From an uncultured Smithella sp. (GTDB taxonomy: Bacteria; Desulfobacterota; Syntrophia; Syntrophales; Smithellaceae): DNA of 64,000 nt. The stretch lies in the NCBI GenBank assembly GCA_964547345.1, contig CAZJMX010000003.1, positions 24,800 to 88,799 on the forward strand, read 5' to 3'. The notes under the pieces are model-generated. The model saw only the letters and a program-made list of their open reading frames with translations, was not told the DNA's origin and did no database searches. The first letter of the stretch is position 1. Each line of letters begins with the position of its first letter. This document shows positions 3,497 through 51,407 of the stretch, piece after piece. Both the position numbers and the translations under genes were made by a program.

Positions 3497-3683
3497 CTTT
3501 CCCCTCAGTCTATTCAGTTTGTGATCGGACGGTTTTCAATACTCTTTCCCTATATCGGCGCTTGCGTCCGAAAAAATGACTATTTTTTTAATTCTTTTTT
3601 GATTATTCTGCAAGAGGGTCAATGAAACTTAAGTAATGACGTATATTCTCGATATATAATTTAAATTCCCGGGAGATGCCGCT

Positions 3684-13257: not shown

Positions 13258-14574
13258 ATGAAATCGATTGATAAATTAAAGCGCCTGACCGGCGAGGATG
13301 TGGCTCCGAAAAAGACGGAGCCGCAAAACGCGCCTGCGTCAACTGAAAGACAGTCGCAGCTTGATGATCTGCGCCGCCGGATCGAAAGTGTGACTTCGCG
13401 TACGGACGTGCGGCAACGGGCGGCCAGAGACGAAGCGCGGGTGCGCGGCAACCAGGGACTTGCCGACATTCTTGACGGGTGTGAGATCGAAAACGAACAC
13501 GGACACTTTTTCCTCGTCAGCCGCATGAACCGCAGCGCGAGCACGCATGGGCATCGTACCATCCACGAGGCGTGGAATTTTGACATGAGCGCCGCAGCGA
13601 TGCTGGCCAACAATCCCATCATCAGCGCGTTCAGTTCTGAGGACGCCCTGTTTCTGGATACCGAAACCACGGGCCTTGCCGGCGGCACCGGAACGATGGC
13701 TTTTATGATCGGCCTGGGCTGGTTTGAAGACGGCCACTTTCAGGTTAGGCAAATTCTGGCGCGTGATTTCGGCGAAGAGAAGGCGGCGCTTTTTTATCTC
13801 AAAGAAATCGCTGCGCGGAAAAAATTTCTGGTGACGTTTAACGGCAAAGCATTTGACGTCAATCTGCTGACCACGCGGTTTATTTTAAACAAGCTGCAAA
13901 GCGACCTGGCCAATTTGCCGCATCTGGATTTGCTGCACCCTTCGCGCCGTATCCTGGGACATCGCCTGGAAAACTGCCGGCTCGTCACGCTGGAGTCGGA
14001 TATCCTCGGCGTCCAGCGGGAAGGTGATATCCCCGGCTGGGAAATCCCGCAACGCTATTTCGACTGGCTGAAGCGGCGCGATCCGCGGCTGCTTGCCGAT
14101 ATCTTTGAACACAACCGGCTGGATGTGGTTTCCATGGCGACGCTGACTGCGCATCTGGTCGAAATCCTCACCGCGCAGGCCCTCAAGCAATACGCGCATC
14201 CCGATGACTATCTTGCCGCCGCCCGCCTGTTATTGAAACGCGCAAACGACGAAGGCGTTGAAAAGATACTGGACATCTTTCAGGAAGGCGGCTGCACGGA
14301 TTTCTCCGACCAGTCCAAAAAGAAACTGGCGCAATTATACAAGCGCACCGGCAAAATAAACGAAGCCGCGCAAATCTGGCGGCAGATGGCTGCCTGCGAA
14401 CCTGTGGAATTCTATGCCGTCTCGGAGATGGCCAAATATCTGGAGCATCGCGCAAAAGATTACGTCCAGGCCAAAGAGCTGATCGAAACTGCCTTTGCCA
14501 GGGACAATACTTTTTCCGAAGATGAACGAGCGTCCCTGCTGCTCCGGTTACAAAGATTGAACACCAGACTGTGA
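13258..14574 (+). CDS. mrfB: RNase-H-like DEDDh exonuclease with C-terminal TPR-like region (MrfB/YprB-like)
   Basis: LFLDTETTGL, FNGKAFDVNLL and HNRLDVVSM exonuclease motifs. Located downstream of the MrfA-like helicase. Confidence 0.7.
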   Translation: MKSIDKLKRLTGEDVAPKKTEPQNAPASTERQSQLDDLRRRIESVTSRTDVRQRAARDEARVRGNQGLADILDGCEIENEHGHFFLVSRMNRSASTHGHRTIHEAWNFDMSAAAMLANNPIISAFSSEDALFLDTETTGLAGGTGTMAFMIGLGWFEDGHFQVRQILARDFGEEKAALFYLKEIAARKKFLVTFNGKAFDVNLLTTRFILNKLQSDLANLPHLDLLHPSRRILGHRLENCRLVTLESDILGVQREGDIPGWEIPQRYFDWLKRRDPRLLADIFEHNRLDVVSMATLTAHLVEILTAQALKQYAHPDDYLAAARLLLKRANDEGVEKILDIFQEGGCTDFSDQSKKKLAQLYKRTGKINEAAQIWRQMAACEPVEFYAVSEMAKYLEHRAKDYVQAKELIETAFARDNTFSEDERASLLLRLQRLNTRL

Positions 14575-14810: not shown

Positions 14811-15243
14811 ATGCAATGGATTGAATCGGAAACCTTGGAGCTGAAGAAATCAACCGGTGAGTTGAAAGTGGGCATTGTTTCTCTTGTCGCTATGCTCAAC
14901 AAGCATCATCGGGGAGAACTCTGGTTTGGCATTAAAAACGATGGAACAGCCGTCGGCCAGACCATTTCCGAGGCCAGTTTGCGGGAAGTCGGGAAGTCCA
15001 TCGGCGATCATATCGAACCTAAAGTCTATCCCTCCGTGGAAAAAGTGATGGTTGAAGAGAAGCCCTGCATCCGGGTGCAGGTGGAGGGAAAATCGGCTGG
15101 AGATTCGCAATTCCGGTCTGCTTTATGGCGGGCTTACCGTTTCAGACATCCGGAAAAAGATGGTTTCTCTGCGGCGCAGCCGCGATATATCAGCCGTTAA
15201 GTTGGACGATTATCTGATGCAAGTGGCTGTCTTTAAAACATGA
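14811..15243 (+). pseudogene. remnant of an AlbA_2/Schlafen-type (RecG-like) putative DNA-binding regulator, frameshifted and internally deleted
   Basis: N-terminal ESETLELKKS...ELWFGIKNDGTAVG (AlbA_2 domain) in one frame. A C-terminal-type segment LEIRNSGLLYGGLTVSDIRK continues in another frame (15052-15243). Confidence 0.55.
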
Positions 15244-15328
15244 TTGACTTTCTCTTTTAAATCGGGATAACTAACGATCACGATCTTTAGATGAACCGCT
15301 CATATCCCTAACAGCAGGAGGTGTTTTT

Positions 15329-15535
15329 ATGAATACCGTTAAAAAAATATACGCCGACATGCCGGAGATCATAAATGTTCCAAAAGAATTTATTCATAGA
15401 AAAGGCGAGGTCATTATTATTCTCGATGACGCTGCCCCTAAGAAGGCATCTTTTTTAAAGGATTTCTATGGATCAATTCCCGATTTTCCTGAAAGAACTT
15501 CTCAAGGGGATTTCGAGGAAAGAGTCCCTCTATGA
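15329..15535 (+). CDS. AbrB/SpoVT-like VapB-type antitoxin
   Basis: 68 aa with INVPKEFIHRKGEVIIILDD. Its stop overlaps the ATG of the vapC remnant (ATGA). Confidence 0.55.
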   Translation: MNTVKKIYADMPEIINVPKEFIHRKGEVIIILDDAAPKKASFLKDFYGSIPDFPERTSQGDFEERVPL

Positions 15536-15646
15536 AATATGTGTTGGACACCAATGCGTGCATCAGATTGTCGTATCCTCATTACACACAATAAAAGAGA
15601 ATTTTCCCGAATAGACAATCTGGTTATTGAAGACTGGGAAGAGTAA
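15532..15646 (+). pseudogene. internally deleted PIN-domain vapC toxin remnant
   Basis: Starts MKYVLDTNACI (canonical PIN N-terminus), then a premature stop. A typical VapC C-terminus, EFSRIDNLVIEDWEE*, is readable ending at 15646. About 90 codons appear to be missing. Confidence 0.6.
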
Positions 15647-15835
15647 CTCCTTCAATATGAGATAATTTCAGGACACGACAATTAACTCAGACTTTTTTTT
15701 GCGGCGGTCAAGAAAATTAAGGGTTATGTCCCCTGAACAGCCAATCTTCAAGATTGAACATGCAAAAAATGAGATGATGAAAAAGATTAAATGAATATTG
15801 CGGACACCTGACCAGACTATGTGGAAATATTAAAA

Positions 15836-18800
15836 ATGGGATTTGAATCCGGTGGATTAGCAGATAAATTAGGCAATAGATATGAGGGCCGCTGGATAGC
15901 AAAACAGCTCCTGCGTCTATTAAATGAAGAAATCCAATCTGTGACAATAGAGGCCATCGGCGATGATGAAAGAGGTGTGGATCTATGGATAGGGCAAAAT
16001 AATGGCGTCCGTCAAGCACAGCAGTGCAAAGCTCGTAACCGGAGTGAAGAATCATGGTCTATAAATGATCTTAAATCTCGAAATATTTTCAATCATGCCA
16101 AATTTCAACTTGATAATAACAGAAATAATACATTTGCCTTTGTTTCAGCAGTCGGGGCACAAACATTTCATGATCTGTGCGAAAGCGCCAGAAATTCAAA
16201 TCTAAATCCTGATGATTTCTACAAGTACCAAGTTGAGGCTGTCGGTCAAGCACGTAGAGAAGGATTCAAAAAGTTCTGTGAGGCCATTCAGGTTAATTCT
16301 GAAGACCCCTTAGCGCGTGTTCTGGCATTTAATTACCTCAAACGAATAGATACTATTCTTTACCCTGATGATCATAATAATTGGCAAAATTTGTTAGCAG
16401 ATGCGCAATATCTATTGACCGGTGCACCAGAAACCACAGTTTCAACTTTGATAGCTTATTCAGAAAATAATTACGCCTTTAGAAAGCCTATCTATGCAAA
16501 TGAACTACGAGAACATTTAGCAACCTTGGACATCCGACCAAAGCTACTTGCGCATGATGCGCGTATCGCACCCGTTATCGATGAATTACAGAAACAGTTC
16601 GAAGAGTCTATTAGTCCACGGCTGATCTGTGGCAACATCATCCCAAGGGAAGAAACTACAAAACTGATTAAATTAATCCAAGAAAGTTCAGATGCTATTT
16701 TGCACGGTACGGCGGGTAATGGGAAAAGTGTCGTGCTTTATGAGCTCACTCGGTATCTTCAACTAGAAAATATTCCATTTCTTCCTGTCAGGTTGGACCG
16801 CCGCGAAGCAAATAACACCGCTGCACAATTCGGCTGCGATATGGGATTGCCTGATTCTCCAGTTTATTCATTAATCGCACTTGCCGGTGAGCGCCCTTGT
16901 GTTTTGTTGCTGGACCAACTCGATGCCATAAGATGGACGTCTTCCCACTCAGCAAATGCTCTTGATGTCTGCAAAGAACTATTACGGCAGGTAAAGCAGT
17001 TGCGTTATGGCGGGGGAAAAATAACCGTGGTGCTATCCTGTCGAAGCTTTGATCTGGAAAACGATCCGGAAATTCGGAACTGGCTGAATGCTGACAAGAC
17101 ATTGAGAAAAGTTGAAGTAACTCCTCTCAGCGCAAAGGCCATAGGCGAGATACTGGGCCCATCCGTGAATCAGATGACAAGTCGTCAGAAACAAATTCTG
17201 GCATGTCCCCAAAATTTGGCGATGTGGATGACATTGAAGAAAGAAAATTCGATTCCTGAATTCCGGTCTGTCACAGAACTGATGCGCTGTTTTTGGAAAA
17301 ATCGCCGCGAATTACTGGGGAATGCCGGTATTGCTATGACAGAGTTGGACAGGATCATTGATATGATTCTTGATGAGATGGAACGCAGTGGTAGAGTATC
17401 AGTGTCTACCCGTATTCAATCCCACTTCCCAAGAGTTTTTTCTGCATTACAATCTTATGGTATACTTCAGGAAAGCAATGGCAAAGTGACTTTTTGTCAT
17501 CAGAGTTATTTGGATTACCTGATTGCCGACCGCCTGCTACAGCAAATTACTAATAAAGGTGGCGAAATAACCGACTGGCTTGGCCCAAAAGAGCGACAAT
17601 CGTTGTTTCGTCGTGAACAACTGCGTCAAGCTCTTGCTATGATGAACGAAGAATCTCCAGACGACTTTGCAAAAATGGTTAAGAATATATTGGAATCTGA
17701 CAAAATACGGTTTCACATCAAGCATGTTGTTCTTGAGTTTATTGGTCAATTGGAAGAGATAAATGAAGAACTTGGCACGTATTGCCTTACGCTCCTTACC
17801 AATGATTATTGGGAAAAACATTTTTTTGAAACCGTATGCATTGGACACGATGCATTTGCCATGCTTCTGATTGAAAAGAGCACCATATCAGAATGGCTAA
17901 ACTCAGGCATGGAAGATGATATCAATCGCGCATTATGGCTTCTTCGTTCTGTCAATGACAAGATTCCAGACAAGGTAACAGAAGCACTAGAACCTTTTAT
18001 GGAAAAAGGTGAACATTGGTATTCGCATATATTGAATACACTTTGTTGGAACGTGGCTGATGATTCTGATGTGATGTTTAATCTTCGCTTAAGACTTATT
18101 CATAAAGGCACGTATGCCAATTACATAAATTGGCAAGTTCTCTGTAAAAAATATCCACTTCGAGCATTACAGTTAATCGAGTCACTTGTCTCGACCTGGC
18201 CAGAAGAACGAACTGATACTGTATCTATGCCCATGACGTCATCTGCACCGATCGACCGAGTGGACAAATTGTATGACGAAGACATGAAATCCCTTAAAAG
18301 TATTGCAGAAAGCTATCCAATGGAAACTTGGGATCATCTCATCCCGCATATAGCAAGGTTGACAGAGTTTCAACCCTCACCTAATTATGATAGCCGATTA
18401 GATAAGTGGCAAAGAAATTTATGGGCGCGCGTTGACAGATACAATGACATCAGAAGAGGTATTGTTGAACTTGCAATTACTGCTGGAAAGAAACTGGCCG
18501 CTGAAAATCCCGAAGAATTGTTCAGGCTGACGACTGCCTTGGAAAATAGTATTTCTATCGTTATTCAGGAGATCATCATTAATGTATATTCTCAGCTTAA
18601 TCCAAACTATGCTGATATCGGTATCAATTGGCTGATTTCCGATCCATTAAGATTTCAACTTGGATCTGGTTATGATGAACCCATTTGGATGCCCGCAGTC
18701 CGCCTAATGAAATCATTATCCCCTCATTGTTCAGAGTTGATATTTCGGAAATTAGAAATGACGATAATCAATTGCCATCCGGCAGATGAAAAGCGAATGG

Positions 18801-20491
18801 CAAAACATTATCTTAGCGCCTGGCGTGATGGCTATTTCAATGACTATTGGGGGCGACTCCAATATTTTCTTCTTCCCTCTCTTGATTCTAATAGAATGCT
18901 TCCAACGACAAGCAATTTAATTGATGTGCTGAATCGCAAGTACATGAAGTATGATAAACATCGATTTCTCAAATCTGGACGAGTATCAGGAGGTTCGATT
19001 GGTTCCAAGCTCGATAAGTCGCTTGATAGAATCAGTGACCGTTCTTGGCTGGCTATTATAGAAAATCAGAATATTCCTGTAAGCCATAATCATTGGCAGC
19101 AAGTTGATGAACATCACGCCGTTACATCGACAGTTGAACAATTTTCGCGTAGCCTCGGAAGAATCGCTAATCGTTTTCCAGAGCGGTTCGCGCAACTTGC
19201 CCTCCGTCTGCCACAAAATGTACATCCATATTACTTGTCAGCAATTATTGATGCATTAGCGTTGAAAGAACCACAAGGTGATGTGGCAGCATCGGAAAAG
19301 GCCAGTTGGTGTCCAGCAGATTTCGGTACCATAGAGAATGTGCTGTCAAAATACTACGCGGGTAGCGACCGAGACTCCGCGATGTCATTATGCAGGCTCA
19401 TTCATGCGCGACCCGAAGAATCTTGGTCTGATGAAACAATAGCGATACTTATCAATTTTGCAATGAATCACACTGACCTAGAATTAGGAAAATTGAACAT
19501 TCATTGTGATAAATCTTCGGATGCGGCAACGATACAAGAGCTTTTCAATAACACCATTAATTGTGTCCGTGGCTATGCCGCGGAAGCCATTGGAGCATTG
19601 CTATGGGCACATACTGATTGGTTGGAAAAATTCAGGATTGGGATCGAAGCGCTTGTGCGCGATTCCCATCCAGTAGTGCGAATGGCAGCAATAGACACTT
19701 TACTGCCAGCTATAAACATCGATAAAGACCTTGCTGTCAATTTGTTTTGTCTAGCTTGCAGGGATGATTTGCGTGTAGCTGCGTCACCTAGAGCGATTCC
19801 ATTTTTTAATTGCGCTTTCACAAGCCATGCAGATCAACTCTCACCACTAGTCAAAGCAATGGTTACCTCACCTTTTGAAGGCGTGTCTCAGGAAGGTGCC
19901 GAAGAGGTTACCGCACGCTGGCTTCTTCAGGATTTATTCAGTGAAGAACTCAGCAATTGTAGAAACGGTAGCATTTCACAGCGTAAAGGCGTCGCCCAAG
20001 TTTCATCGCATTTTCTCCATGATGACAAATACACCGTGCGTTGCCAAGAATTACTTCTTCCCTTGATAAATGATCCAGAAAAAGATGTCCGAACAGAAGC
20101 AGCAAGGATAGCTAGAAATCCAGCTTTCTTGAAGTGTACCTTGGATCATGCTTTCATAACTGCATATATCAAGTCCAAAGCCTATATTGACGATCCATCG
20201 GGTATTATTTACGATTTGAAAGAATTTCCAGGTTCTTTATTGCCTTTATCAGAAATTATTTTTGATATTTGCAAAATATTCTCAACCATTTTAGTATCGG
20301 AATCAAGAGATCTTCGTTTGCATATCCCCCATTCTGTTTCTGAAGTCTACTCTTTGCTCTTAAGACTTTACGAACAGTCAGAAGGCCTGAACAATACGAA
20401 GATAAGCGATAGATGCTTGGATGTATGGGATATGTTGTTTGAAAATAGAGTTGGTATGATTCAAGAGTTGGCTAAAGCGATTGAAAAATAA
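15836..20491 (+). CDS. giant single-gene candidate defence protein: N-terminal Cap4/DUF4297-like PD-(D/E)xK nuclease, central P-loop NTPase, C-terminal HEAT-like solenoid of about 1100 aa
   Basis: SGGLADKLGNRYEGRW...EAIGDDERGVDLWI...QAQQCK nuclease-like motifs. Walker A GTAGNGKS at 16706-16729. Walker B VLLLDQLD. HEAT-like repeats (VRMAAIDTLLPAI, DPEKDVRTEAARIA). ATG at 15836 preferred over GTG at 15821. Confidence 0.65.
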   Translation: MGFESGGLADKLGNRYEGRWIAKQLLRLLNEEIQSVTIEAIGDDERGVDLWIGQNNGVRQAQQCKARNRSEESWSINDLKSRNIFNHAKFQLDNNRNNTFAFVSAVGAQTFHDLCESARNSNLNPDDFYKYQVEAVGQARREGFKKFCEAIQVNSEDPLARVLAFNYLKRIDTILYPDDHNNWQNLLADAQYLLTGAPETTVSTLIAYSENNYAFRKPIYANELREHLATLDIRPKLLAHDARIAPVIDELQKQFEESISPRLICGNIIPREETTKLIKLIQESSDAILHGTAGNGKSVVLYELTRYLQLENIPFLPVRLDRREANNTAAQFGCDMGLPDSPVYSLIALAGERPCVLLLDQLDAIRWTSSHSANALDVCKELLRQVKQLRYGGGKITVVLSCRSFDLENDPEIRNWLNADKTLRKVEVTPLSAKAIGEILGPSVNQMTSRQKQILACPQNLAMWMTLKKENSIPEFRSVTELMRCFWKNRRELLGNAGIAMTELDRIIDMILDEMERSGRVSVSTRIQSHFPRVFSALQSYGILQESNGKVTFCHQSYLDYLIADRLLQQITNKGGEITDWLGPKERQSLFRREQLRQALAMMNEESPDDFAKMVKNILESDKIRFHIKHVVLEFIGQLEEINEELGTYCLTLLTNDYWEKHFFETVCIGHDAFAMLLIEKSTISEWLNSGMEDDINRALWLLRSVNDKIPDKVTEALEPFMEKGEHWYSHILNTLCWNVADDSDVMFNLRLRLIHKGTYANYINWQVLCKKYPLRALQLIESLVSTWPEERTDTVSMPMTSSAPIDRVDKLYDEDMKSLKSIAESYPMETWDHLIPHIARLTEFQPSPNYDSRLDKWQRNLWARVDRYNDIRRGIVELAITAGKKLAAENPEELFRLTTALENSISIVIQEIIINVYSQLNPNYADIGINWLISDPLRFQLGSGYDEPIWMPAVRLMKSLSPHCSELIFRKLEMTIINCHPADEKRMAKHYLSAWRDGYFNDYWGRLQYFLLPSLDSNRMLPTTSNLIDVLNRKYMKYDKHRFLKSGRVSGGSIGSKLDKSLDRISDRSWLAIIENQNIPVSHNHWQQVDEHHAVTSTVEQFSRSLGRIANRFPERFAQLALRLPQNVHPYYLSAIIDALALKEPQGDVAASEKASWCPADFGTIENVLSKYYAGSDRDSAMSLCRLIHARPEESWSDETIAILINFAMNHTDLELGKLNIHCDKSSDAATIQELFNNTINCVRGYAAEAIGALLWAHTDWLEKFRIGIEALVRDSHPVVRMAAIDTLLPAINIDKDLAVNLFCLACRDDLRVAASPRAIPFFNCAFTSHADQLSPLVKAMVTSPFEGVSQEGAEEVTARWLLQDLFSEELSNCRNGSISQRKGVAQVSSHFLHDDKYTVRCQELLLPLINDPEKDVRTEAARIARNPAFLKCTLDHAFITAYIKSKAYIDDPSGIIYDLKEFPGSLLPLSEIIFDICKIFSTILVSESRDLRLHIPHSVSEVYSLLLRLYEQSEGLNNTKISDRCLDVWDMLFENRVGMIQELAKAIEK

Positions 20492-20655
20492 GTTGTCCAG
20501 AAAAACCTGAGAACACCATAATTAAATGGACCGGTTCTATTAACTTCAGGAATCACATAGCAGAAGAAGTGAATGTATCCATTTTGCCATGCGGCTTTTC
20601 GAAATATTTGTAACCAAAGTATACCAAAATATGTTAATAGATCTTAACAAATGCG

Positions 20656-20856
20656 GTGGAGGTAAATATGCAGGCTGTAAGAGAAAATGTGATCACCATG
20701 ATCAAAAATATGCCTCAGGATGTTTCTATTGAAGATATTATGGCAGAGTTATATTTTCGTTATGAAGTTGATCAAGGCTTGAAACAATTGGATGAAGGCA
20801 AGGGCATTCCGCATGAAGAAGTCGAAAAACGGATGAAAAAATGGTTAAAAAAATAA
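20656..20856 (+). CDS. putative antitoxin of the downstream ParE/RelE toxin
   Basis: 66 aa. Overlaps the toxin start by 16 nt. C-terminal GKGIPHEEVEKRMKKWL is typical of small addiction-module antitoxins. Confidence 0.55.
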   Translation: MEVNMQAVRENVITMIKNMPQDVSIEDIMAELYFRYEVDQGLKQLDEGKGIPHEEVEKRMKKWLKK

Positions 20857-21131
20857 GGTGGTCGCCAAAAGCTTCTGACAACTTTGAGGACATTTGTAAT
20901 TTCATCGGCAAGGATTCAGAATATTATGCCTGCATGTTTGCCAAGAAAATTAATGATATTGTTTTAAATATTCCCGCTTTTCCAGAATCCGGTCGGATCG
21001 TGCCGGAATATCAGGATTCCAATCTAAGAGAAAAAATATTTCAAAATTATCGAATCGTCTATCGAATCAGCGGGAATTTTATTGAGATCGTGACAATTTC
21101 CCATGCTGCAAAACCGATAGATGTTCAATGA
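20841..21131 (+). CDS. RelE/ParE-family type II toxin
   Basis: 96 aa with W.P.A..D...I..FI, PESGRIVPE, YRIVYRI....IEIVTISH pattern. Confidence 0.7.
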   Translation: MVKKIRWSPKASDNFEDICNFIGKDSEYYACMFAKKINDIVLNIPAFPESGRIVPEYQDSNLREKIFQNYRIVYRISGNFIEIVTISHAAKPIDVQ

Positions 21132-21198
21132 TTATCTGTGAATTCTACTGTTAGCTTAATCCACAAGATTAATCCGGAAAATATAGTATAGAGCGGAC

Positions 21199-21632
21199 AT
21201 GAAACTCCTCCACGCTTCCGACTGGCACCTGGGCCGCGCCCTTTATAATCGCAAGCGGTATGACGAGATTGAAGCTTTTCTCGCCTGGCTTGCGGGAATT
21301 ATTGAGCGCGAAAATGTTGATGTGGTTTTGATTGCAGGCGATGTTTTCGACAACAGTACGCCCAGCAATTATGCGCAGGAGCTATATTGCCGGTTTTTGT
21401 GCCGCGTGGCTGGCTCCGCCAGCCGTCAGGTGGTGGTTATTGCCGGCAATCATGATTCGCCGTCCTTTTTGAATGCGCCGAAGGAACTTCTGAAATTTCT
21501 CAATATTCACGTGGTCGGATATGCGGCAGGCGATCCTGCCGATGAAGTGCTTGTGCTTTCCGGGACGGATGGCCAACCCGGCCTGATGGTCTGCGCTGTT
21601 CCCTATCTTCGGAACCGTGACATAAAAATATT
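21199..21632 (+). pseudogene. sbcD: sbcD N-terminal fragment (about 145 codons)
   Basis: MKLLHASDWHLG, LIAGDVFD and AGNHDS metallophosphoesterase motifs. The frame breaks near 21621-21635. Confidence 0.75.
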
Positions 21633-21926
21633 TCCGGCGGGGAAAGCTTTCTGGTCAGTCTGGCGCTGGCTTTAGGCCTGTCGCGCATGGCCAGCCGCAA
21701 CGTCCGGGTGGATTCGCTTTTTCTGGATGAAGGATTCGGAACCCTCGATGACGAAGCGCTTTCGACCGCTCTGGACACACTGGCCGAATTGCAGCAAGCC
21801 GGCAAGCTCATCGGCGTTATTTCCCATGTCCCCGCGCTCAAAGATCGTATCGGCACACAGATAACGGTGACTCCGGAAGCAGGCGGCCGCAGCTCGCTTT
21901 CCGGCCCCGGCTGTTTGCGAGGTTGA
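21633..21926 (+). pseudogene. sbcC: sbcC C-terminal fragment (ABC signature to stop)
   Basis: SGGESFLVSLALALGLS signature motif, Walker B/D-loop LFLDEGFGTLD and H-loop VISHV, joined directly to the sbcD fragment in a different frame. Confidence 0.75.
21882..21926 (+). repeat. left copy of 45-bp direct repeat (last 14 codons + stop of sbcC)
   Basis: ggcggccgcagctcgctttccggccccggctgtttgcgaggttga. 43/45 identical to 28380-28424. Confidence 0.85.
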
Positions 21927-22132
21927 CAGACGGGCATTTTTCATGCATTAAAAGACCACTCCAAAGAATTCTGAAACATTTGCGTCGTTGATTTTGGGAA
22001 AGATCCGGGACATGTTGATCGTCTGAAGTTCCAACTGAAGATTTCGCGCAAGCATTATCGATTTATCCGTATGATGGGTCAGCTTTAATAAATTTCTTTA
22101 TCATTGCCATTGCAAAGGAGGAAATATAAATC

Positions 22133-24085
22133 ATGGCATTTCCCATCGCAATTCCGGTGGCCATTTCCGCTGTCAAAGCGTTAATCAGGTTTCGCGGTCA
22201 GCTCGATACCATCCTTTCGCAAAATGTAACGACAACAGGGCTCCCGTTTGCCTTGCCTCCGGCGCCGACTGACGATGCCCGCTATCTCAAAGACATGCTC
22301 GGCTTCTTCTCCACGGATCAAGGCAAAATGGTGTTGCATCTTCGCGGCCTGGCAGAGGAATTTAAAAATGTTGAAGCCAGCCCGCATTCAACGGATGCAT
22401 CGATTGATGAAAAGCGAAAGAAGCTCTTCGAATTGTATTACCTTGCGGCGGACGTGCGCCCCGATATTTTGGGACCCTCCGATCCCGGTCAGGCTGCTCC
22501 GGCCAGAGGGCCCAGCGCCGACATGCGTCTGGCCTATTTTGTCGTTGAATCGCAACGTCTCTCCCGCAATATGGCCACGGTGCGCGTGTTGCTTGCCACG
22601 GCCGATACGCTGCTGGAATTTACCGGTGAAAACGCCGGTCTCTTTATTTCCAATCCTCAAACCCGATCTCTGATCGAAAACCTGATCGAAGAATTTGCCG
22701 GAAAACGGAACTTCGATGACGACGGAATAGAGACGATTTTCAAATCGCTTCTGGGGGCTACGCTTGCGGCACTGGCAAACCATCCCGGTGATCTCGTCAA
22801 TAAACCGGCCATGAAAGCGCTCTTTGCCGCCCTGGGCGACGTTCGGGACAAAATGGGAAATAATTTCGCCGCAGAGATTATTTCCATGGAAGGTTTTGAG
22901 AAACTTGTTGCCTCTTACGCAACGTTTGCGGCGAAAGATCCGTCGTTCATGACGGACAATGTTTACTTGCAGCAGGTTCTGTCCGCCATGCTCGGTATGA
23001 TCGGCAGCGATTTTCCGAAAATGGTGAAAGACCCCAAGGCGTTTCTGGGGATTCTGGAGGCGGGCCTTGGCGCGGCTACGGCCCATGTCAATATTCTTTT
23101 GAAAGGCAAGCTCGAGGGGCAACCCGTGCTGGCGGCCGTCTTGAAAAGCGTCTGCGGCGAGGTCGAAGCGCTGGCCCATAAAAATGCGTTGTTCAAAAAC
23201 ATCGGGAGCGGTCAACTGATTGCGGATATTTACAAAACCGGTCTTCAGGCGGTTGCGGCAAATCCTGTTTTGTTTTCCACTCAAAACGATACAAACAAAT
23301 TTATCTCTTCTTTACTTTCCGGTCTTGCATCCGCCCTTGCGCAAAAGGATCTCTCGACACTGTTTTCGGAAGACACGCTCCGGGCGCTGGCTTCAGAGAG
23401 CCTTGTTGTTCTTTCCGCCAATGCTACATTTTTAACCGGTCACCATGAGTTTGCAACGAACCTCCTGGCCGCCGTTTTTCAGTCGGGAGCAAAGTCAATA
23501 AAAGACGGCGTTACGAAAGACGACCTGATCGACATCGCAAAGGCCGCCCTGAAAGCCGCATCCGAAAACATTGCGCTAGTCAGGATGGATGCCCGGTTTG
23601 CCGCCATTATTTCATCATTTTGCAATGCCTGCTCCGGTGTGGATTCTAAGCAACTGACTACTGCGCAGGGACGAAAGGATTTAGTGCTGATCTCTTTGCA
23701 GGTTGTTGCAGCCAATCCGCAGGTATGGGGGCAATGGGAAGAGAAGAAATTGGCACAACCTCTAGTGGAGGCGGTTCTTGCGGGCCTGAAAGAAGATCCC
23801 ACCCAACTGCTTTCCGGCCCAGTGCTGGTCGATGCCGTGCGCCGCATCCTGATTTCCGTTGCCCGCCGGGGAAATCAAATCATCAGCAAGTCCGTCAGTC
23901 CGGAAGTCCTGAAAAATATTCTTCTGCAATGTCTTAAACGCGCCAATCAGGAGATCGGCAAGACAGTGGACGGAGAAAACCTGCCGCTTTATCTGGAGCG
24001 GGCTGTGATCTCGTTTATGGCCGTCCCCGGCATGAAGTCTGCGGAGATGGCCGGTATGCTCGATGGGGTGATTGCCGGACTTTAA
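22133..24085 (+). CDS. hypothetical 650-aa all-helical protein (no recognisable family), hydrophobic N-terminus
   Basis: AAGGAGG about 10 nt upstream of the ATG. Ala/Leu-rich helical repeat character. N-terminus MAFPIAIPVAISAVKALI. No catalytic motif seen. Confidence 0.6.
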   Translation: MAFPIAIPVAISAVKALIRFRGQLDTILSQNVTTTGLPFALPPAPTDDARYLKDMLGFFSTDQGKMVLHLRGLAEEFKNVEASPHSTDASIDEKRKKLFELYYLAADVRPDILGPSDPGQAAPARGPSADMRLAYFVVESQRLSRNMATVRVLLATADTLLEFTGENAGLFISNPQTRSLIENLIEEFAGKRNFDDDGIETIFKSLLGATLAALANHPGDLVNKPAMKALFAALGDVRDKMGNNFAAEIISMEGFEKLVASYATFAAKDPSFMTDNVYLQQVLSAMLGMIGSDFPKMVKDPKAFLGILEAGLGAATAHVNILLKGKLEGQPVLAAVLKSVCGEVEALAHKNALFKNIGSGQLIADIYKTGLQAVAANPVLFSTQNDTNKFISSLLSGLASALAQKDLSTLFSEDTLRALASESLVVLSANATFLTGHHEFATNLLAAVFQSGAKSIKDGVTKDDLIDIAKAALKAASENIALVRMDARFAAIISSFCNACSGVDSKQLTTAQGRKDLVLISLQVVAANPQVWGQWEEKKLAQPLVEAVLAGLKEDPTQLLSGPVLVDAVRRILISVARRGNQIISKSVSPEVLKNILLQCLKRANQEIGKTVDGENLPLYLERAVISFMAVPGMKSAEMAGMLDGVIAGL

Positions 24086-24107
24086 GAAAAAGATACGGAG
24101 GGAGACG

Positions 24108-24956
24108 ATGATGAAAAATGACTCGAACCGAAGGCTGATCAATCGAATGCGGCAGGCGATGATTGCCGGGCTGATCTTGTTATATCTGGTGCTGGCGGGC
24201 TGCGCATACATTTTACCTGAAACAACAGCGCTCGATAAAATACATGAGACCTACCGCCTCGATTTTCAGAAATACGTGCAACTGTCCGTGCCGGTTGCGT
24301 CGACGCAGCCGACCCTGATGCCGGTAGGAAAGGAGCATCCGCTTTTTGCGGATACACTTCGGAAAATACGCGATTACCGGGTGAAATACGGTGAAGACTC
24401 CCAGGAGGCGGCGCATCTGAAAGTGCTGGAGGGCATGATTTATCTGCAATCCGGTCAGGTGGGCATGGCGCGTCTCGTTGCATCCGACGTTCAGGCCGCG
24501 CAAAGTAAATTGATATCAAAAACCGGTTCCTATACGCGTGACCAGTTGCTGGCCGGAACATATCCGGATTTAATTGCCGGCTGGGAGCAGATTGTCAACA
24601 AGGGGACGGATGCCGGAAAATTGAAAGCCGCCGCCGACCGCATCGGAGCCGAGCTGCGAGGGCTGGATAAGTCAAAAATGGCCGAACCGGAGGTGGATGA
24701 AGGGGCGGTTTATCTGGCGACAACCGCCGCAATATTTTATGTCTGGGTATACAGCAAAGAAGTTTTTTCCTGTGCGGGCGCAAAAGTGTGCGCAGACGGG
24801 TTGCGAAAAGATTATTTCGGAAAAGGAAAAGATTTGATCGGGATGTTTTTAAGCGAGACGGAAAAAAAGGCTGCAGCCGACAAAAGCCGGTCCGCCGATG
24901 TGCCGCCCGGTCGCCTGCGATACATTTCATGGTACGGTTATTTACTGGTGGAGTAA
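24108..24956 (+). CDS. predicted lipoprotein (unknown family)
   Basis: Signal peptide with lipobox LVLAGC. ATG-ATG at 24108 preferred; the ORF-track start at 24072 overlaps the upstream gene. Confidence 0.6.
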   Translation: MMKNDSNRRLINRMRQAMIAGLILLYLVLAGCAYILPETTALDKIHETYRLDFQKYVQLSVPVASTQPTLMPVGKEHPLFADTLRKIRDYRVKYGEDSQEAAHLKVLEGMIYLQSGQVGMARLVASDVQAAQSKLISKTGSYTRDQLLAGTYPDLIAGWEQIVNKGTDAGKLKAAADRIGAELRGLDKSKMAEPEVDEGAVYLATTAAIFYVWVYSKEVFSCAGAKVCADGLRKDYFGKGKDLIGMFLSETEKKAAADKSRSADVPPGRLRYISWYGYLLVE

Positions 24957-24999
24957 GAACGAGATACACTCATTCATTAAAGCATTCAGGAATAAAACA

Positions 25000-27900
25000 A
25001 TGAACGATTCTGATCTGAAAAAAGAAACACGATTTGCGGTCATTATGTATGGCGGCGTTTCGCTGGCTGTGTACATCAACGGGATTGCCCAGGAACTCTA
25101 CCGGATGGTATCGGCAACGGCGAATCCGTCCGATGCTTCGGCAAACCCCAGGCCATGGGGCTCCGAGCCGGTCTATAAAAAAATCGGCGCGATGCTCAAG
25201 ACCCGTTTTGTGGTGGATATTTTATCCGGCACGTCCGCGGGCGGCATCAACGGCATATTTCTCGCCAAAGCTCTGGCCAACGGACAGTCATTCAAATCGC
25301 TGGAACAGTTGTGGCTGGATGAAGGCAATATCGAAGTTCTGATCAACGACGAAAAATCAAAAGATCGCGGCTGCCGGGCAGATGTTGCATATCCCAGGTC
25401 GCTGCTCAACAGCGAGCGCATGTATAATCACCTGCGGGATGCCTTCGATCAGATGGACGAAAATCCGTCCAAGGCAGGGAAGGCTGGCGCACCGCTGGTT
25501 GACGAACTGGATTTGTATGTTACGGCCACCGATTTGCAGGGGTTCCCCGTTCCGCTCAAACTGTCGGATATTGTTGTGCTGGAAAAAGAGCATCGGAATA
25601 CCTTTCACTTTCATTTTAAAAAAGGCTCGGCAAGCGACAATGATTTTATAAGGGACAATAATCCTTTTCTGGCTTTTGCCGCCCGCTGCACATCCGCTTT
25701 CCCTTTTGCCTTCGAACCGATACGCCTGCAGGATATTCCGGAGAGCGCCCGTCATCCGCAATGGAGCCGGTTTTATGAAAAATATCTGCTCGATTCCGAT
25801 CATTGCGGGAAGAATGCGCCCCCGGATCTCCCGGTGATCAATGGGAAGTATGACGTGTTTACAAAACGGTCTTTTGCCGACGGCGGCTATCTGGACAACA
25901 AGCCCTTCAGCTATGCGATCAATGCCATTACATCGAGAAGTTCCGGCGTTCCTATAGATCGCAAGCTGATTTACATCGAACCGTCGCCAGACGTTGAACC
26001 TGATCCCTGCACGGTCGAGGGACCGCCCAATGCCGTTGAAAATGTCGGAAAGGTGTTTTCTCTGGCGATTTACGAAACCATTCAGGAGGATCTGCGGCGG
26101 GTCATCGATCGCAACCGTTTAATCGAACGCGTCAACCGCATCCTGAAAGGAACGACGGATGATTTCCTGAAAAAAGAAGGAGGCCCGGAGACGGCCGTCC
26201 ATTGGTACGGTTCTTACCTTAAAGACATGATTGCAAGAGAAGGGATTCACTACGGCGGTTATCTGCGGCTCCGTGTCGCCCAACTGACCGACGACCTGAC
26301 GGAAATCATCACCCGGCATGCAGGCTTTGATGTTCAGTCCGATTTTTTCCTGGCCGTGCGCTATATCGTCCGCGCCTGGCGCGACGCCCGGTATGAATAC
26401 GACCGGGCGGATGACGCGAAAGCCTCCGGCAAAAAGTCGTTCAACCGGTTTTTGTACGATCACGATCTGGGATTTATGATTCGCCGCCTGGGTTATACGA
26501 TTTCCGTCATCGATACGGTTTTGTCTCTCGCGGAGATATGGCGGCAGGCCGCCTACCGCGAAAAACTGCCGGATGCGGAAAAAGGCAGACTGATCCAAGA
26601 ATATGGAGAGTTGTTCTTTGCGGTCGTAGAGCCTCTGAAAACGCCGGAAGAGATAGACAACTTTGTGGGCAGGCTTCGCGATATCCGCAGGGAGTTGAGT
26701 CAAAAAAGAGAAGCGATTTATGATCTTCATGCCATGCTGTTTAGCCCGGGCAAGAGAAAGGCGCCGTCCGATGAGATGCAAAGGCTGATGAAAGCCTTCG
26801 GCGATGTGAAAATCAAGCCGGCTGAGATGATGGAGAAAATTCTGGGGAAGTCGTCTGAAAGCGGTAAACATCCGACCGCTCGTTCCGAGTCAGAAAGTTA
26901 CAACGCGGCCAGGATTTTAATTGAAGAAGCCGGCAGAATAGGGCAACTCGACCGCGTGGCAGATATTGTCAGGCAAGTCGTGAGAAAGGCGGACGACTGC
27001 ATGTCCGCAGCCAAGGTTAAACTGGGACTGGAAATGATTTCAGGCCGAGATCAGCGGGAAACAGCCAGCGTCACGTTCAAAGCCCTGTCCGTTCCGGCGA
27101 CGGTTGCAGAGATGTTGGATGATCAGGCATTGACGGCTACAAAGGAGTTTGAACACTGGGCTCAAATGGAGAAGGCGAGTCGTCTGGCGACGTGGCTTCC
27201 CGCAATCTTTTTCAGGCGGTTTATGTGGTACGACGAAATTGCTTACCCCATTATCCAGTTTTCGGGAGTTGGGCAGGAACTCGATGAAGTGGAGATTGTC
27301 CGCATCAGTCCCAACGATGCTCAATCTTTATCCGACCGCGGTGTCAACAAACTGGGCGGAACGGCCCTCATGCACTTTGGCGCTTTTCTGGACCGCACCT
27401 GGCGCAAGAATGATATCCTATGGGGACGCCTTGACGGCGCCGAGCGAATCATCAAGGCATTGCTGGCGGGGGCGGATGAAAAAGCAATCGATGACCTTGT
27501 GAAAGAGGCGCATCTGGCGATTATTCAGGAAACGTTCTTTGAGAGGCGGGAAGATGATCAGGGCGGAGAAGACCGATTGCGTGTTCAGGAAACCATCGAC
27601 CTCCTGCTTCAATTCATTCTAGGAAAAAACAACGAAGAAAGAAGAAACAAAAAACTTAAAGTCATGAGCGGGCAGAACAGAGGCCTCTATAAAGCCATAC
27701 AAGATTTGATGGATAAAATAAGCCGAGGCGAAGTCGGTCAGGAAAAGGGTTGCCGATGCAACAGGGCGGCTGATGACGAAATTGTAAAAAGTATTCTGGG
27801 AAAAATACTGGGCGGAAAAATAACGAAAGAAACTATTTATTACTGGCTTAAAGGGTATGAAGTCAATAAGGATGTCAATCCTCAGCTGGCCTTGGAATCT

Positions 27901-28371
27901 ATCACCCGGTCAACAGAGGTTCTAGGAAAAATGCTTGGCGTCATGTCCAACGAATATGGAGCGCTGAAACGCCCGGCGGCGTGGCTTACAAGGCTTGGCG
28001 CTTTTGCCTGGGGATTGGTGGAAGCCTCCATCCCCAAAAGTTTACTCGACCTTCTGACCAGGAAACTGACGTCGCTTGTTACACTGATTGCCGTCATTCT
28101 GATTGCCGGCGGCATATTCATTCATGAAAATGCGGTAGAGAGAATCGGCATATGGCTGTTAATCGGCGCGCTCATTTTTACCCTGCTCAAATTTTATTTA
28201 AGAAGCTTTTTGATGAAAAGGAGGCTCCCTGCGCTCATCAGGCGCTTGCTTACGGCCCTGCTGGCGTTGGCGATATTTACCGTATTGGGCGTCGGCATTT
28301 TGTATTTGCCTGAAGCACTTAAGCGTTTGACGGACGCGCTGCAGGCGTTATACACCTCCGGCCTTAGATGA
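25000..28371 (+). CDS. patatin-like phospholipase with DUF3376-like region and C-terminal transmembrane helices
   Basis: MYGGVSLAVY oxyanion region, GTSAG (GxSxG) nucleophile, FADGGYLDN catalytic Asp, FGAFLDRTWRKNDILWGRLDG (DUF3376-like), four hydrophobic helices in the last 150 aa or so. ATG at 25000 preferred over 24898. Confidence 0.75.
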   Translation: MNDSDLKKETRFAVIMYGGVSLAVYINGIAQELYRMVSATANPSDASANPRPWGSEPVYKKIGAMLKTRFVVDILSGTSAGGINGIFLAKALANGQSFKSLEQLWLDEGNIEVLINDEKSKDRGCRADVAYPRSLLNSERMYNHLRDAFDQMDENPSKAGKAGAPLVDELDLYVTATDLQGFPVPLKLSDIVVLEKEHRNTFHFHFKKGSASDNDFIRDNNPFLAFAARCTSAFPFAFEPIRLQDIPESARHPQWSRFYEKYLLDSDHCGKNAPPDLPVINGKYDVFTKRSFADGGYLDNKPFSYAINAITSRSSGVPIDRKLIYIEPSPDVEPDPCTVEGPPNAVENVGKVFSLAIYETIQEDLRRVIDRNRLIERVNRILKGTTDDFLKKEGGPETAVHWYGSYLKDMIAREGIHYGGYLRLRVAQLTDDLTEIITRHAGFDVQSDFFLAVRYIVRAWRDARYEYDRADDAKASGKKSFNRFLYDHDLGFMIRRLGYTISVIDTVLSLAEIWRQAAYREKLPDAEKGRLIQEYGELFFAVVEPLKTPEEIDNFVGRLRDIRRELSQKREAIYDLHAMLFSPGKRKAPSDEMQRLMKAFGDVKIKPAEMMEKILGKSSESGKHPTARSESESYNAARILIEEAGRIGQLDRVADIVRQVVRKADDCMSAAKVKLGLEMISGRDQRETASVTFKALSVPATVAEMLDDQALTATKEFEHWAQMEKASRLATWLPAIFFRRFMWYDEIAYPIIQFSGVGQELDEVEIVRISPNDAQSLSDRGVNKLGGTALMHFGAFLDRTWRKNDILWGRLDGAERIIKALLAGADEKAIDDLVKEAHLAIIQETFFERREDDQGGEDRLRVQETIDLLLQFILGKNNEERRNKKLKVMSGQNRGLYKAIQDLMDKISRGEVGQEKGCRCNRAADDEIVKSILGKILGGKITKETIYYWLKGYEVNKDVNPQLALESITRSTEVLGKMLGVMSNEYGALKRPAAWLTRLGAFAWGLVEASIPKSLLDLLTRKLTSLVTLIAVILIAGGIFIHENAVERIGIWLLIGALIFTLLKFYLRSFLMKRRLPALIRRLLTALLALAIFTVLGVGILYLPEALKRLTDALQALYTSGLR

Positions 28372-28379
28372 AGAAAACG

Positions 28380-28424
28380 GGCGGCCGCAGCTCGCTTTCC
28401 GGCCCAGGATGTTTGCGAGGTTGA
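28380..28424 (+). repeat. right copy of 45-bp direct repeat (orphan sbcC 3' end)
   Basis: ggcggccgcagctcgctttccggcccaggatgtttgcgaggttga still reads GGRSSLSGPGCLRG*. Both differences from the left copy are synonymous third positions (ccc/cca, ggc/gga). Confidence 0.85.
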
Positions 28425-28426
28425 TG

Positions 28427-29053
28427 TTACTCCGGATGCCCGGGGCTCTCCTGCTTTTTTGCCGTTTTGTGTCCTTCTTCCAGGATATAGGCAATTTTAT
28501 CCGCCTGAAGATCATAGGCGCGCTGGATTTGTTCCTCTTCGGATGAAAAAAGATCGGCAGCATCGATTTTCATCAGTTTCATTAAGCGGTGTTCCGTATC
28601 ACGGTTGTCTTCCAGCGATCCGTCTTCCAGAATATGACGGATGTGGATGATCGGCCTACGCAGATTGCGGCAGATCAGCAGCATCCGGTGGCAGGTGAGG
28701 GGGTCCTTTTCGGCGCACATCAGCGCGATACGATGGGTCTCCATGCCCTTTTGCAGACGGCTCAGCCCCTGCTGAAAGATTTCTTTTTCGGCAATACGCT
28801 GATATTGGACCTTGCCGTTTTCATAGCACGATAAATCGGAGCTTCTCGGCCCCAGCTCAGCGCCCAGGTAGATGTACCTGATGCCGTGTTTCAAGACGTC
28901 TTCTTTGATGGATTCGCGGTTGAATTGAGGCGAATGGCGGCTGTAAGGGCTTGACCGGACATCGCACAGGGCGTTGACGGCATGTTGCTTGAGCAGAGCA
29001 ACAAACCCTTCAACGGTGTGAACCGAATGCCCGATGGTGAACAGCTCTTTCAT
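28427..29053 (-). CDS. DUF488-family protein
   Basis: LFTIGHS...LCDVRSSPYSR...YLGAELGPRS pattern characteristic of DUF488. Confidence 0.65.
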   Translation of the reverse strand: MKELFTIGHSVHTVEGFVALLKQHAVNALCDVRSSPYSRHSPQFNRESIKEDVLKHGIRYIYLGAELGPRSSDLSCYENGKVQYQRIAEKEIFQQGLSRLQKGMETHRIALMCAEKDPLTCHRMLLICRNLRRPIIHIRHILEDGSLEDNRDTEHRLMKLMKIDAADLFSSEEEQIQRAYDLQADKIAYILEEGHKTAKKQESPGHPE

Positions 29054-50480: not shown

Positions 50481-51236
50481 TTGAGGTCAAGCGCCGTGTA
50501 CGAGTGCCGATGTCCCCATGATGGTAAGAAGCTTGCCGAACTGGCCCGGCCACCTTTGGCTTTGGGTCATTATAACTACCCCTGCGAATGTGGGCGGTGG
50601 GTGCATGGAAAGCGGCGACCGAGATATGTTCCACCCGAAGATGACTTTTGGAAGGTTTATGATCAGGCAGTCGGTCAGGACAAGGTTATGCTCCTGGCGT
50701 TTCTTCATCTGGCGGCAAGACGATCGGAAGTATTTCACATCAAATGGTCGGATGTTGATTTTATAAACAACCAAATCTGCCTTTGGACCCAGAAGCGTGA
50801 AGGCGGTCACAAAGAATTCGATTGGCTCCCGATGACGTCGGATCTTCGACAAGCTTTGCTTCAATGGAGTGAAGAAAGATTGAAGCAAAAAACTGAAGAT
50901 AAAGAGCATGCGTTTGTTTGTCTTGATGAAACACCTTTTTGTGAGGAGTATTACGGCAAGCCGTTTATTCATCGGCAGCATCTGATGGCGCGTCTGTGCG
51001 CGAAGGCAAAAGTCAAACCTTTCGGGTTTCATGGCATCAGGCATCTGACTGCATCAATACTCTATCAAAAAGGATACACCCTTTCGGTAATCCAGACTAT
51101 ATTGAGACATGCGAGTCCGAATACGACGGCTCGTTATATCCACAGTCTCGGTTTGGAAGAAACAAGGGGAGCACTGGAGAAAGGTCTAAAAGGTCCTGCG
51201 CAGGGGATCGAGTTTAAAAAGGCAACTGTTCCATAA
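50481..51236 (+). CDS. tyrosine recombinase/integrase, catalytic domain only (probably N-terminally truncated)
   Basis: ARRSEV (Arg), HGIRH, RH...TTARYIH (Tyr) catalytic motifs. TTG start with an in-frame stop shortly upstream. No core-binding domain present. Confidence 0.65.
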   Translation: MRSSAVYECRCPHDGKKLAELARPPLALGHYNYPCECGRWVHGKRRPRYVPPEDDFWKVYDQAVGQDKVMLLAFLHLAARRSEVFHIKWSDVDFINNQICLWTQKREGGHKEFDWLPMTSDLRQALLQWSEERLKQKTEDKEHAFVCLDETPFCEEYYGKPFIHRQHLMARLCAKAKVKPFGFHGIRHLTASILYQKGYTLSVIQTILRHASPNTTARYIHSLGLEETRGALEKGLKGPAQGIEFKKATVP

Positions 51237-51265
51237 AAAACCCCCAGAGGGGCAACTCTGAGGGT

Positions 51266-51287
51266 ACTTGTGTCCGGACTTGTGTCC
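51266..51287. repeat. tandem direct repeat acttgtgtcc(gg/ag) x2 between integrase and tRNA
   Basis: 51266-51275 and 51278-51287 are identical 10-mers with 12-bp periodicity. Confidence 0.6.
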
Positions 51288-51332
51288 AGAGGTTAACGGT
51301 GAAGGTTGTTGTTCTTAATCCTTTGTAATTAT

Positions 51333-51407
51333 TGGTAGTCCCAAGGGGAGTTGAACCCCTGTCTCCGGCGTGAGAGGCCAGCGTCCTAACCACTAGACGA
51401 TGGGACC
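51333..51407 (-). tRNA. tRNA-Glu (anticodon CUC), CCA encoded
   Basis: The reverse complement GGTCCCATCGTCTAGTGGTTAGGACGCTGGCCTCTCACGCCGGAGACAGGGGTTCAACTCCCCTTGGGACTACCA folds by hand as a cloverleaf with anticodon loop CTCTCAC. Confidence 0.85.

Follow-up and report, generated by a model that had tools for sequence, protein, structure and literature searches.

Cis-mobilizable elements (CIMEs) are decayed derivatives of ICEs (integrative and conjugative elements) or of IMEs (integrative and mobilizable elements), which have kept their attachment (att) sites and carry no recombination or transfer genes (PMC7563491). In streptococci they are 1.2-13 kb long, and the genes whose 3' ends they occupy are fda, rpsI, rpmG, rplL or tRNA-Lys (PMC7563491). 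Integrase-bearing islands, such as those that target tRNA genes or Salmonella genomic island 1 (SGI1) at trmE (PMC8409611), also enter the extreme 3' end of a gene, restore it with a repeat and leave an empty site in relatives, and have their own tyrosine or serine recombinase beside one att site. The present work concerns a 64,000-nt stretch of a contig from an uncultured Smithella sp. (CAZJMX010000003.1; this whole stretch is called the window hereafter), in which a 6,453-bp cassette of three genes (two uncharacterised genes, A and B, and a gene for a patatin-like phospholipase) lies at the 3' end of sbcC, between two copies of the last 45 bp of that gene.

Like a CIME, the cassette is a cargo-only unit of a few kb between direct repeats that correspond to the 3' end of its target gene, with no integrase, relaxase or transfer genes, and the gene-proximal repeat kept the target reading frame intact. 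Unlike CIMEs, whose att sites are shared with a cognate ICE or IME, usually in tandem, it has no known partner of this kind, and none that uses the sbcC end was found in the 57 metagenomic and 3 viral-collection sbcC loci or in the phage and plasmid collections; its host is a Syntrophaceae-like deltaproteobacterium, not a streptococcus. Since the repeats are present and mobility genes are absent, while ICE or IME remnants are also absent (the repeats enclose a 206-bp leader and three cargo genes, all intact, with no pseudogene remnants), we call the cassette CIME-like and do not file it as a proven member. With integrase-bearing islands it shares the insertion at the extreme 3' end, the gene-restoring repeat and the empty site in relatives, the difference being that it carries no recombinase of its own; an integrase-encoding island was in fact considered and rejected, because no recombinase lies between or next to the repeats and the nearest open reading frame (ORF) of the integrase family, 251 aa long, is 22 kb away. 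Units that lack a recombinase and use a host enzyme also exist, namely the integrative mobile elements exploiting Xer (IMEX) and the pdif modules, which recombine at 28-bp dif-like sites with an AT-rich consensus. The cassette resembles them in being a module-like unit without a recombinase of its own; the GC-rich sbcC tail is presumably unlike dif, a judgement made by eye and without a formal scan. A transposon or insertion sequence was rejected too, given that there are no terminal inverted repeats (the longest terminal inverted match of the insert is 5 nt), no transposase, and a duplication of 45 bp instead of a short one of 2-15 bp. No integron-type integrase was present among the window ORFs scanned, attC sites not having been searched with a dedicated model.

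Evidence for an insertion comes from relatives in which the site is empty. In L005, a contig from a Syntrophaceae metagenome-assembled genome (identity to the window 86% for sbcC and 81% for the neighbouring DUF488 gene), the sbcC stop codon is followed, after 2 nt, by the stop codon of the convergent DUF488 gene, and the metagenome contigs L062 and L041 have the same arrangement and the same 2-nt spacer. L005 aligns with the left repeat copy and everything leftward of it, and with the right copy and everything rightward, and not with the 6.45 kb in between; the 2 nt that follow the right copy are the spacer of the three empty sites. Because relatives have the empty site, the segment between the copies (Table 1) is a lineage-specific insertion with a 45-bp target duplication. 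An earlier reading of the window, made from the sequence alone (the sequence-only reading), had proposed to look for sbcC followed directly by DUF488, which is what these three loci display, and had held that the repeats delimit the three genes as one acquired unit, with which the empty sites agree. Judged by this comparison of loci, the cassette is confirmed as an acquired unit at the sbcC end, that is, a genomic islet without a recombinase. The closest relatives with an intact sbcDC (L037 and L047) differ from this arrangement in one respect only, an additional small DUF488 paralogue (147 aa, 27% identical to the 208-aa DUF488 protein) ~25 nt past the sbcC stop (5432-5873 in L037); this convergent junction has thus varied independently as well.

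The sequence-only reading had placed the two copies at 21882-21926 and 28380-28424, with 43 of 45 bases identical and both mismatches synonymous, and an exact recheck gave the same result. The left copy is GGCGGCCGCAGCTCGCTTTCCGGCCCCGGCTGTTTGCGAGGTTGA and the right copy is the same 45-mer with C27A and C30A; both differences fall on third codon positions (CCC/CCA for Pro, GGC/GGA for Gly), and either copy translates as GGRSSLSGPGCLRG followed by the stop. The identity ends on the right directly after the TGA and begins on the left at GGCGG, the 5 preceding bases matching at 3 positions. The right copy lies 8 nt past the patatin stop and 2 nt ahead of the DUF488 stop. A search of the window allowing up to 3 mismatches recovers the 45-mer twice only, and 100 dinucleotide shuffles gave no match. 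As 39 of the 135 possible single substitutions in the repeat are synonymous, two random changes would both be silent with p ~0.08 (39/135 squared), so that the synonymous-only pattern is suggestive and by itself not significant. Four independent sequencing runs yielded Logan contigs with 100% identity to the window, and one of these contigs (17.6 kb) crosses both junctions, from which it follows that the structure is not a mis-assembly.

Table 1. Coordinates of the features of the cassette, its target site and the L018 repeat (window positions, except for the last row, which gives positions in L018).
Feature	Position	Strand	Basis or remark
sbcD remnant, first ~141 codons, Metallophos domain	21199..~21623	+	profile match and comparison with relatives
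sbcC remnant, last ~100 codons	21624..21926	+	SGGESF signature motif, Walker B, D- and H-loops, tail
Left 45-bp repeat copy	21882..21926	+	last 14 codons and TGA of the sbcC remnant; CCC GGC at the variable sites
Inserted segment, 6,453 bp	21927..28379	+	absent from relatives; GC 0.51
Non-coding leader, 206 bp, AT-rich (38% GC)	21927..22132	+	upstream of gene A
Gene A, 650 aa, all-alpha	22133..24085	+	conserved together with B (at least 21 genomes)
Gene B, 294 aa, predicted lipoprotein (lipobox LAGC)	24072..24956	+	directly downstream of A
Patatin-like phospholipase with DUF3376 (TIGR03607)	24898..28371	+	alternative start at 25000, giving 1123 aa
Right 45-bp repeat copy, orphan, non-coding	28380..28424	+	CCA GGA at the variable sites
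DUF488 gene, convergent	28427..29053	-	PADLOC PDC-M45B-like; conserved right-hand neighbour of sbcC in relatives
Terminator-like hairpin and T-run	28441..28462	+	inside the DUF488 3' end; now downstream of the patatin gene
L018 repeat copies	4726-4932, 13666-13834, 18823-18871		third copy partial, 5 kb further on

The descent of the two copies was examined in an alignment of both with the sbcC ends of eight relatives. Codon 4 (position 12) is AGC in both window copies and AGT in all eight relatives, and the tail TGTTTGCGAGGTTGA is common to both window copies and occurs in none of the eight; the copies differ from each other at 2 positions and from the relatives at 4-11. Because these derived bases are common to both, the duplicated segment comes from this lineage or a very close one. 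At the variable sites, the gene-attached copy has CCC GGC, the state of the closest relatives (exactly so in 5 of the 8), and every relative has a C at one at least of positions 27 and 30, most of them at both; A27 and A30 are unique to the orphan copy, and the CCC GGC of the left copy is the ancestral state.

The best reading of these observations, which we hold tentatively, is a Campbell-type integration that left behind a decayed, CIME-like islet. The ancestral order in this Syntrophaceae-like lineage, assigned through its nearest relative L005, was, as the relatives show it, the AlbA_2 gene, sbcD, sbcC and the convergent DUF488 gene, with 2 nt between the last two stops. The 6,453-bp DNA carrying A, B and the phospholipase gene entered at the extreme 3' end of sbcC, and the final 45 bp of that gene flank it on either side, the sbcC reading frame having stayed whole on the left and DUF488 and its 3' flank on the right. 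The route would most likely have been one crossover, in which the sbcC end of the chromosome recombined with an identical 45-bp stretch on a circular intermediate. The recombinase would have acted in trans or have been lost since, leaving an att-flanked islet without one. The crossover would lie in the last 15 bp, the attached copy keeping the chromosomal CCC GGC and the orphan showing the incoming CCA GGA; such a position would fit the polarity of the differences, with the relatives' C at position 27 or 30 found in the attached gene. The incoming copy would have to stem from this lineage or one very near it, the lineage-specific bases being common to both copies. The Campbell-type integration would explain the stop-codon boundary, why the two differences have this polarity, and how other units that contain A and B behave; we count in its favour that the stop codon is the exact end of the repeat, that both differences are synonymous and that CIMEs are documented at the ends of protein genes (PMC7563491).

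Those other units were found through gene A, which has 80 database relatives: among 21 genome loci with A, B follows it directly in 18, and the remaining three contigs (L017, L023 and L024) end before B would be reached. In L018, an 8.9-kb unit without an integrase (a hydrolase-like gene, an uncharacterised gene, A and B) has tRNA-Val on one side and, on the other, a copy of the 3' half of this tRNA; the repeat starts in the anticodon loop and runs ~130 bp past the tRNA (172 bp, 85% identity), and the third, partial copy suggests tandem accretion. In L007, A and B stand alone between 151-bp direct repeats of 85% identity (170-320 and 3577-3726), which, judged by eye, contain a promoter-like stretch and end in a terminator-like hairpin with one stem position T-A in one copy and C-G in the other; this repeat may represent a small-RNA-like target. 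A search of Rfam with L007 and L018, the two loci submitted to it, found no family for the repeats other than the tRNA. L085, which has the closest homologue of A (67%), carries it ~4 kb from a tRNA-Asn gene that abuts the gene of a large serine recombinase.

Several results weigh against the Campbell-type integration. No recombinase with specificity for the sbcC end is present in the window, and the only integrase-family ORF in it (50481-51236, 251 aa, abutting tRNA-Glu) is 22 kb from the repeats. The four assemblies of the same population contain the occupied form only, with no excised or empty form among them. With up to 8 mismatches allowed in 33 nt, none of 57 sbcC loci from metagenomes gave a second copy of the tail, nor were orphan tails found in three sbcC loci of a viral collection (IMG/VR), so that the occupied sbcC sites with other cargo anticipated by the sequence-only reading did not appear; phage and plasmid collections gave no mimic of the sbcC tail, the matches being 30-nt chance ones only, and none of the 21 other A-B loci has sbcC nearby. 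The composition of the insert is host-like (its GC and GC3, the GC content at third codon positions, equal those of gltX and fabF and differ from those of a low-GC block upstream), and a foreign origin is therefore not shown. Finally, the derived bases shared by the copies are equally explained by a duplication of the target in situ, and the synonymous-only pattern has the chance probability given above. A literature search gave no paper linking sbcC with attB, and no donor of the cassette was found, the nearest A (67% identical) and the nearest patatin (53%) lying in unrelated contexts. What the sequence-only reading had proposed, an element that targets a gene 3' end and brings a replacement end, has in its favour that the repeat ends at the stop codon and that the L018 and L007 units lie between diverged repeats, and against it that no cognate integrase, no other occupied sbcC site among the 57 and 3 loci and no tail mimic in the phage or plasmid collections was found; this mobile reading is plausible and unproven. 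If the cassette were an excising element, its attB-type junction would be the tail of the sbcC remnant followed by TGTTACTCCGG (also written ACTCCGGAAGCA, the 45-mer and TGTTACTCCGGATGC), and the circular junction would be GAAGAAAACG, the 45-mer and CAGACGGGC (also written GATGAAGAAAACG, the 45-mer and CAGACGGGCATTTTT).

The alternative that survives best, possible and on balance rather unlikely, is a one-off illegitimate insertion, in which the 6.45-kb DNA was captured at a double-strand break whose nicks lay 45 nt apart, or by template switching in the course of repair or replication, and fill-in duplicated the 45 bp. The segment would then never have had an sbcC tail and would not be mobile, and the two C-to-A changes would have arisen later in the non-coding orphan. 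This model accounts for the lineage-specific bases in both copies and for differences that are derived and unique to the unselected orphan, and it agrees with the host-like composition and with the failure to find a recombinase, a cognate element or a second occupied site. The same locus has undergone another event of this kind, a 4.3-kb deletion in sbcDC with a junction microhomology of 1-3 nt, and the cassette is like illegitimate and end-joining insertions in being DNA inserted without a dedicated recombinase beside a microhomology-poor deletion. Insertions by homology-facilitated illegitimate recombination or by end joining usually delete the target or duplicate it minimally, however, and it is not typical of them to leave a clean duplication of 45 bp that ends at a stop codon; such a duplication is far longer than in known transposition or end-joining events, which counts against the model. 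The exact coincidence with the stop codon requires a selection argument, namely that, with stops 2 nt apart, selection for the rare insertions that spare both ORFs could explain the boundary. Furthermore, both mismatches would have to be synonymous by chance, and two other A-B units are flanked by diverged repeats of considerable length, in one case the 3' half of a tRNA, which points to integrative behaviour of their carriers.

An improbable alternative is integration by a much longer sbcC or sbcDC homology, through a circle or a tandem duplication, with the right copy trimmed to 45 bp afterwards. RecA-type recombination is more efficient on long homology, which counts for this model; deletions do happen at this locus, and in another lineage sbcC is commonly truncated to a tail of 11-40 codons. 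The model nevertheless needs an extra deletion whose left end would fall 3-8 nt past the patatin stop, leaving the gene unharmed, and there is no more sbcC sequence upstream of 28375 and no intermediate was seen.

A broader interpretation, which we regard as quite doubtful, pools three target ends: sbcC in the window, tRNA-Val in L018 and, in L007, the 151-bp intergenic segment that ends in a terminator-like hairpin. Cassettes of A, B and an enzyme would then form a widespread recombinase-less mobile class that enters genes at their 3' ends, or transcription units at theirs, each with a 45-170-bp copy of the target end kept functional by selection; a helper or host recombinase would move them, and the sbcC tail would be a new attachment site.

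The sequence-only reading had offered, as its alternative, recombination with a diverged sbcC allele of another strain or species that left a foreign end beside the cassette, and this we consider highly improbable. Two synonymous differences are indeed what two functional alleles would be expected to show; however, the window copies are closer to each other than to any relative, the derived states stand in both of them and in none of the eight relatives, both differences belong to the orphan only, and a plain allelic exchange makes no duplication, so that a diverged foreign allele as the source is not supported by the alignment. That the repeat is an artefact of assembly, or a motif that is common or recurs by chance, can be dismissed with near certainty, the metagenomic origin of the sequence being all that speaks for it, against the four identical assemblies, the shuffles without a match, the fact that in relatives this sequence is the plain end of sbcC (two copies in the window being sbcC's own end, not the common intergenic motif that would have undone the sequence-only reading) and the lack of unusual RNA structure, the repeat and its flanks folding no better than shuffled sequence (z -0.05 to 1.3).

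Whatever its origin, the cassette offers a base-resolved case of cargo entering a defence island with no recombinase present, by an insertion in the 2-nt gap between convergent genes in which neither reading frame was lost, thanks to the 45-bp duplication. Should there be a helper recombinase, a new attachment site would have been found in the sbcC 3' end, and the A-B-lipase family would be a new cargo type of decayed integrative elements. As known so far, it is a single event in one lineage that fits known categories (a CIME-like islet or an illegitimate insertion), and its novelty is modest: a known kind of unit in a new instance, possibly with an attachment site that is new.

The gene on the left of the insertion is no longer intact. 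The sequence-only reading had spoken of an sbcC remnant, and the sbcC end is present; the ORF that contains the junction (21199-21675) is really the N-terminus of SbcD with its Metallophos domain, to which the last ~100 codons of sbcC are joined out of frame from ~21624. Compared with L037 and L047, where sbcDC is an intact 5.0 kb, the window is without 4.3 kb, and because the junction (near 21620-21633) has a microhomology of just 1-3 nt, the loss is an illegitimate deletion. Set against these relatives, sbcDC is shown to be a pseudogene, inactivated by this deletion in an event separate from the cassette insertion. No terminator-like signal was seen at the sbcC remnant ahead of the cassette, so read-through from the sbcD promoter would be possible; on the other side, the terminator-like hairpin in the DUF488 3' end has an equivalent in L005, where it follows sbcC.

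Truncated sbcC ends are not restricted to the window. In another sbcC lineage (L050, L055, L070, L028, L038 and L045), sbcC is cut down to its last 11-40 codons, and the place of sbcDC is taken in these six loci by other genes, several of them defence-related. The tail is joined in frame to a HARE-HTH-like ORF in L050, L055, L070 and L028 (confirmed by Pfam for L055); in L055 this ORF comes after hsdR and a YgjP-like gene, and in L050 genes for DUF6880 and PRiA4_ORF3 lie downstream. In L045 and L038, the tail comes after genes that resemble, by eye, bacteriophage exclusion (BREX) or type I restriction-modification systems. A shared breakpoint hotspot was considered, given that the orphan in the window starts within ~3 nt of the same position as in L050 and L055, and rejected as compatible with chance (five other breakpoints, ascertainment window of 135 nt). 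When the database was searched with the SbcC C-terminus, the 120 best matches had lengths of 79-177 aa without exception; several have exactly 173 aa, one of them from a complete Halopseudomonas genome; these short matches probably reflect contig fragments, frameshifts and a score bias against long proteins.

The insert itself begins with a leader that has no similarity to any fetched locus. Gene A has no match in Pfam, NCBIfam or PADLOC, and its AlphaFold model (predicted local distance difference test score, pLDDT, 72) has no fold match in the PDB at E<=0.001; with an all-alpha model lacking such a match, A was rejected as a candidate recombinase. Gene B overlaps A by 14 nt. The nearest homologues of the phospholipase are 53% and 49% identical and stand alone elsewhere. 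A scan of A, B, the patatin gene and two long antisense ORFs with Pfam, NCBIfam and PADLOC found no recombinase, mobilization or conjugation genes inside the unit, in agreement with the sequence-only reading, which had seen no recombinase there. From these annotations we infer that the cargo is an envelope- or lipid-directed module without mobility machinery.

A (~650 aa) and B (~290 aa) form an uncharacterised conserved pair present in many phyla (22133-24956 in the window; L007-L027 and L085-L087), with loci in Blastocatellia, Spirosoma, Chlorobiales, Planctomycetota, Kiloniellaceae and others. The enzyme beside the pair varies: a patatin in the window, an LCAT-like lipase in L086, Amidase_2/SH3 and an S8 peptidase in L085, PG_binding_1 proteins in L009 and L013, DUF6765 in L011 and, in L018, a weak alpha/beta-hydrolase match below the Pfam cutoff. 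The pair could be an envelope-directed module of conflict or remodelling.

The cassette lies in a defence island (~10000-51300) that comprises a MrfA-like helicase with an RNase_H_2 protein, AlbA_2, DUF488 (PDC-M45B-like), a PLD/helicase fragment, Fic, AbiEi/AbiEii, an MmeI-type restriction-modification system with a helicase, T5orf172, GmrSD, HEPN/RES and AAA_21 with RloB. Upstream of sbcD, a block of ~6 kb (15179-21198) has a low GC content (GC3 0.36, against 0.58-0.66 in host genes) and encodes a 1556-aa AAA/HEAT protein (weak PADLOC match to PDC-M54A) and a ParDE pair. L047 is without this block and has ~550 bp between the stretch homologous to AlbA_2 and sbcD, a comparison by which the block is shown to have entered between the AlbA_2 gene and sbcD, as a separate event; the AlbA_2 ORF may have been truncated by it. 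At the far end of the island, a Phage_integrase-family ORF (50481-51236; 251 aa, probably truncated) abuts tRNA-Glu(ctc) and gltX in the stretch 50481-51407, and no second copy of the tRNA-Glu 3' end that would link this integrase to the region was found in the window. The low-GC block from 42 to 51 kb, which includes an M78 peptidase and helix-turn-helix (HTH) pair, looks like a decayed tRNA-Glu island.

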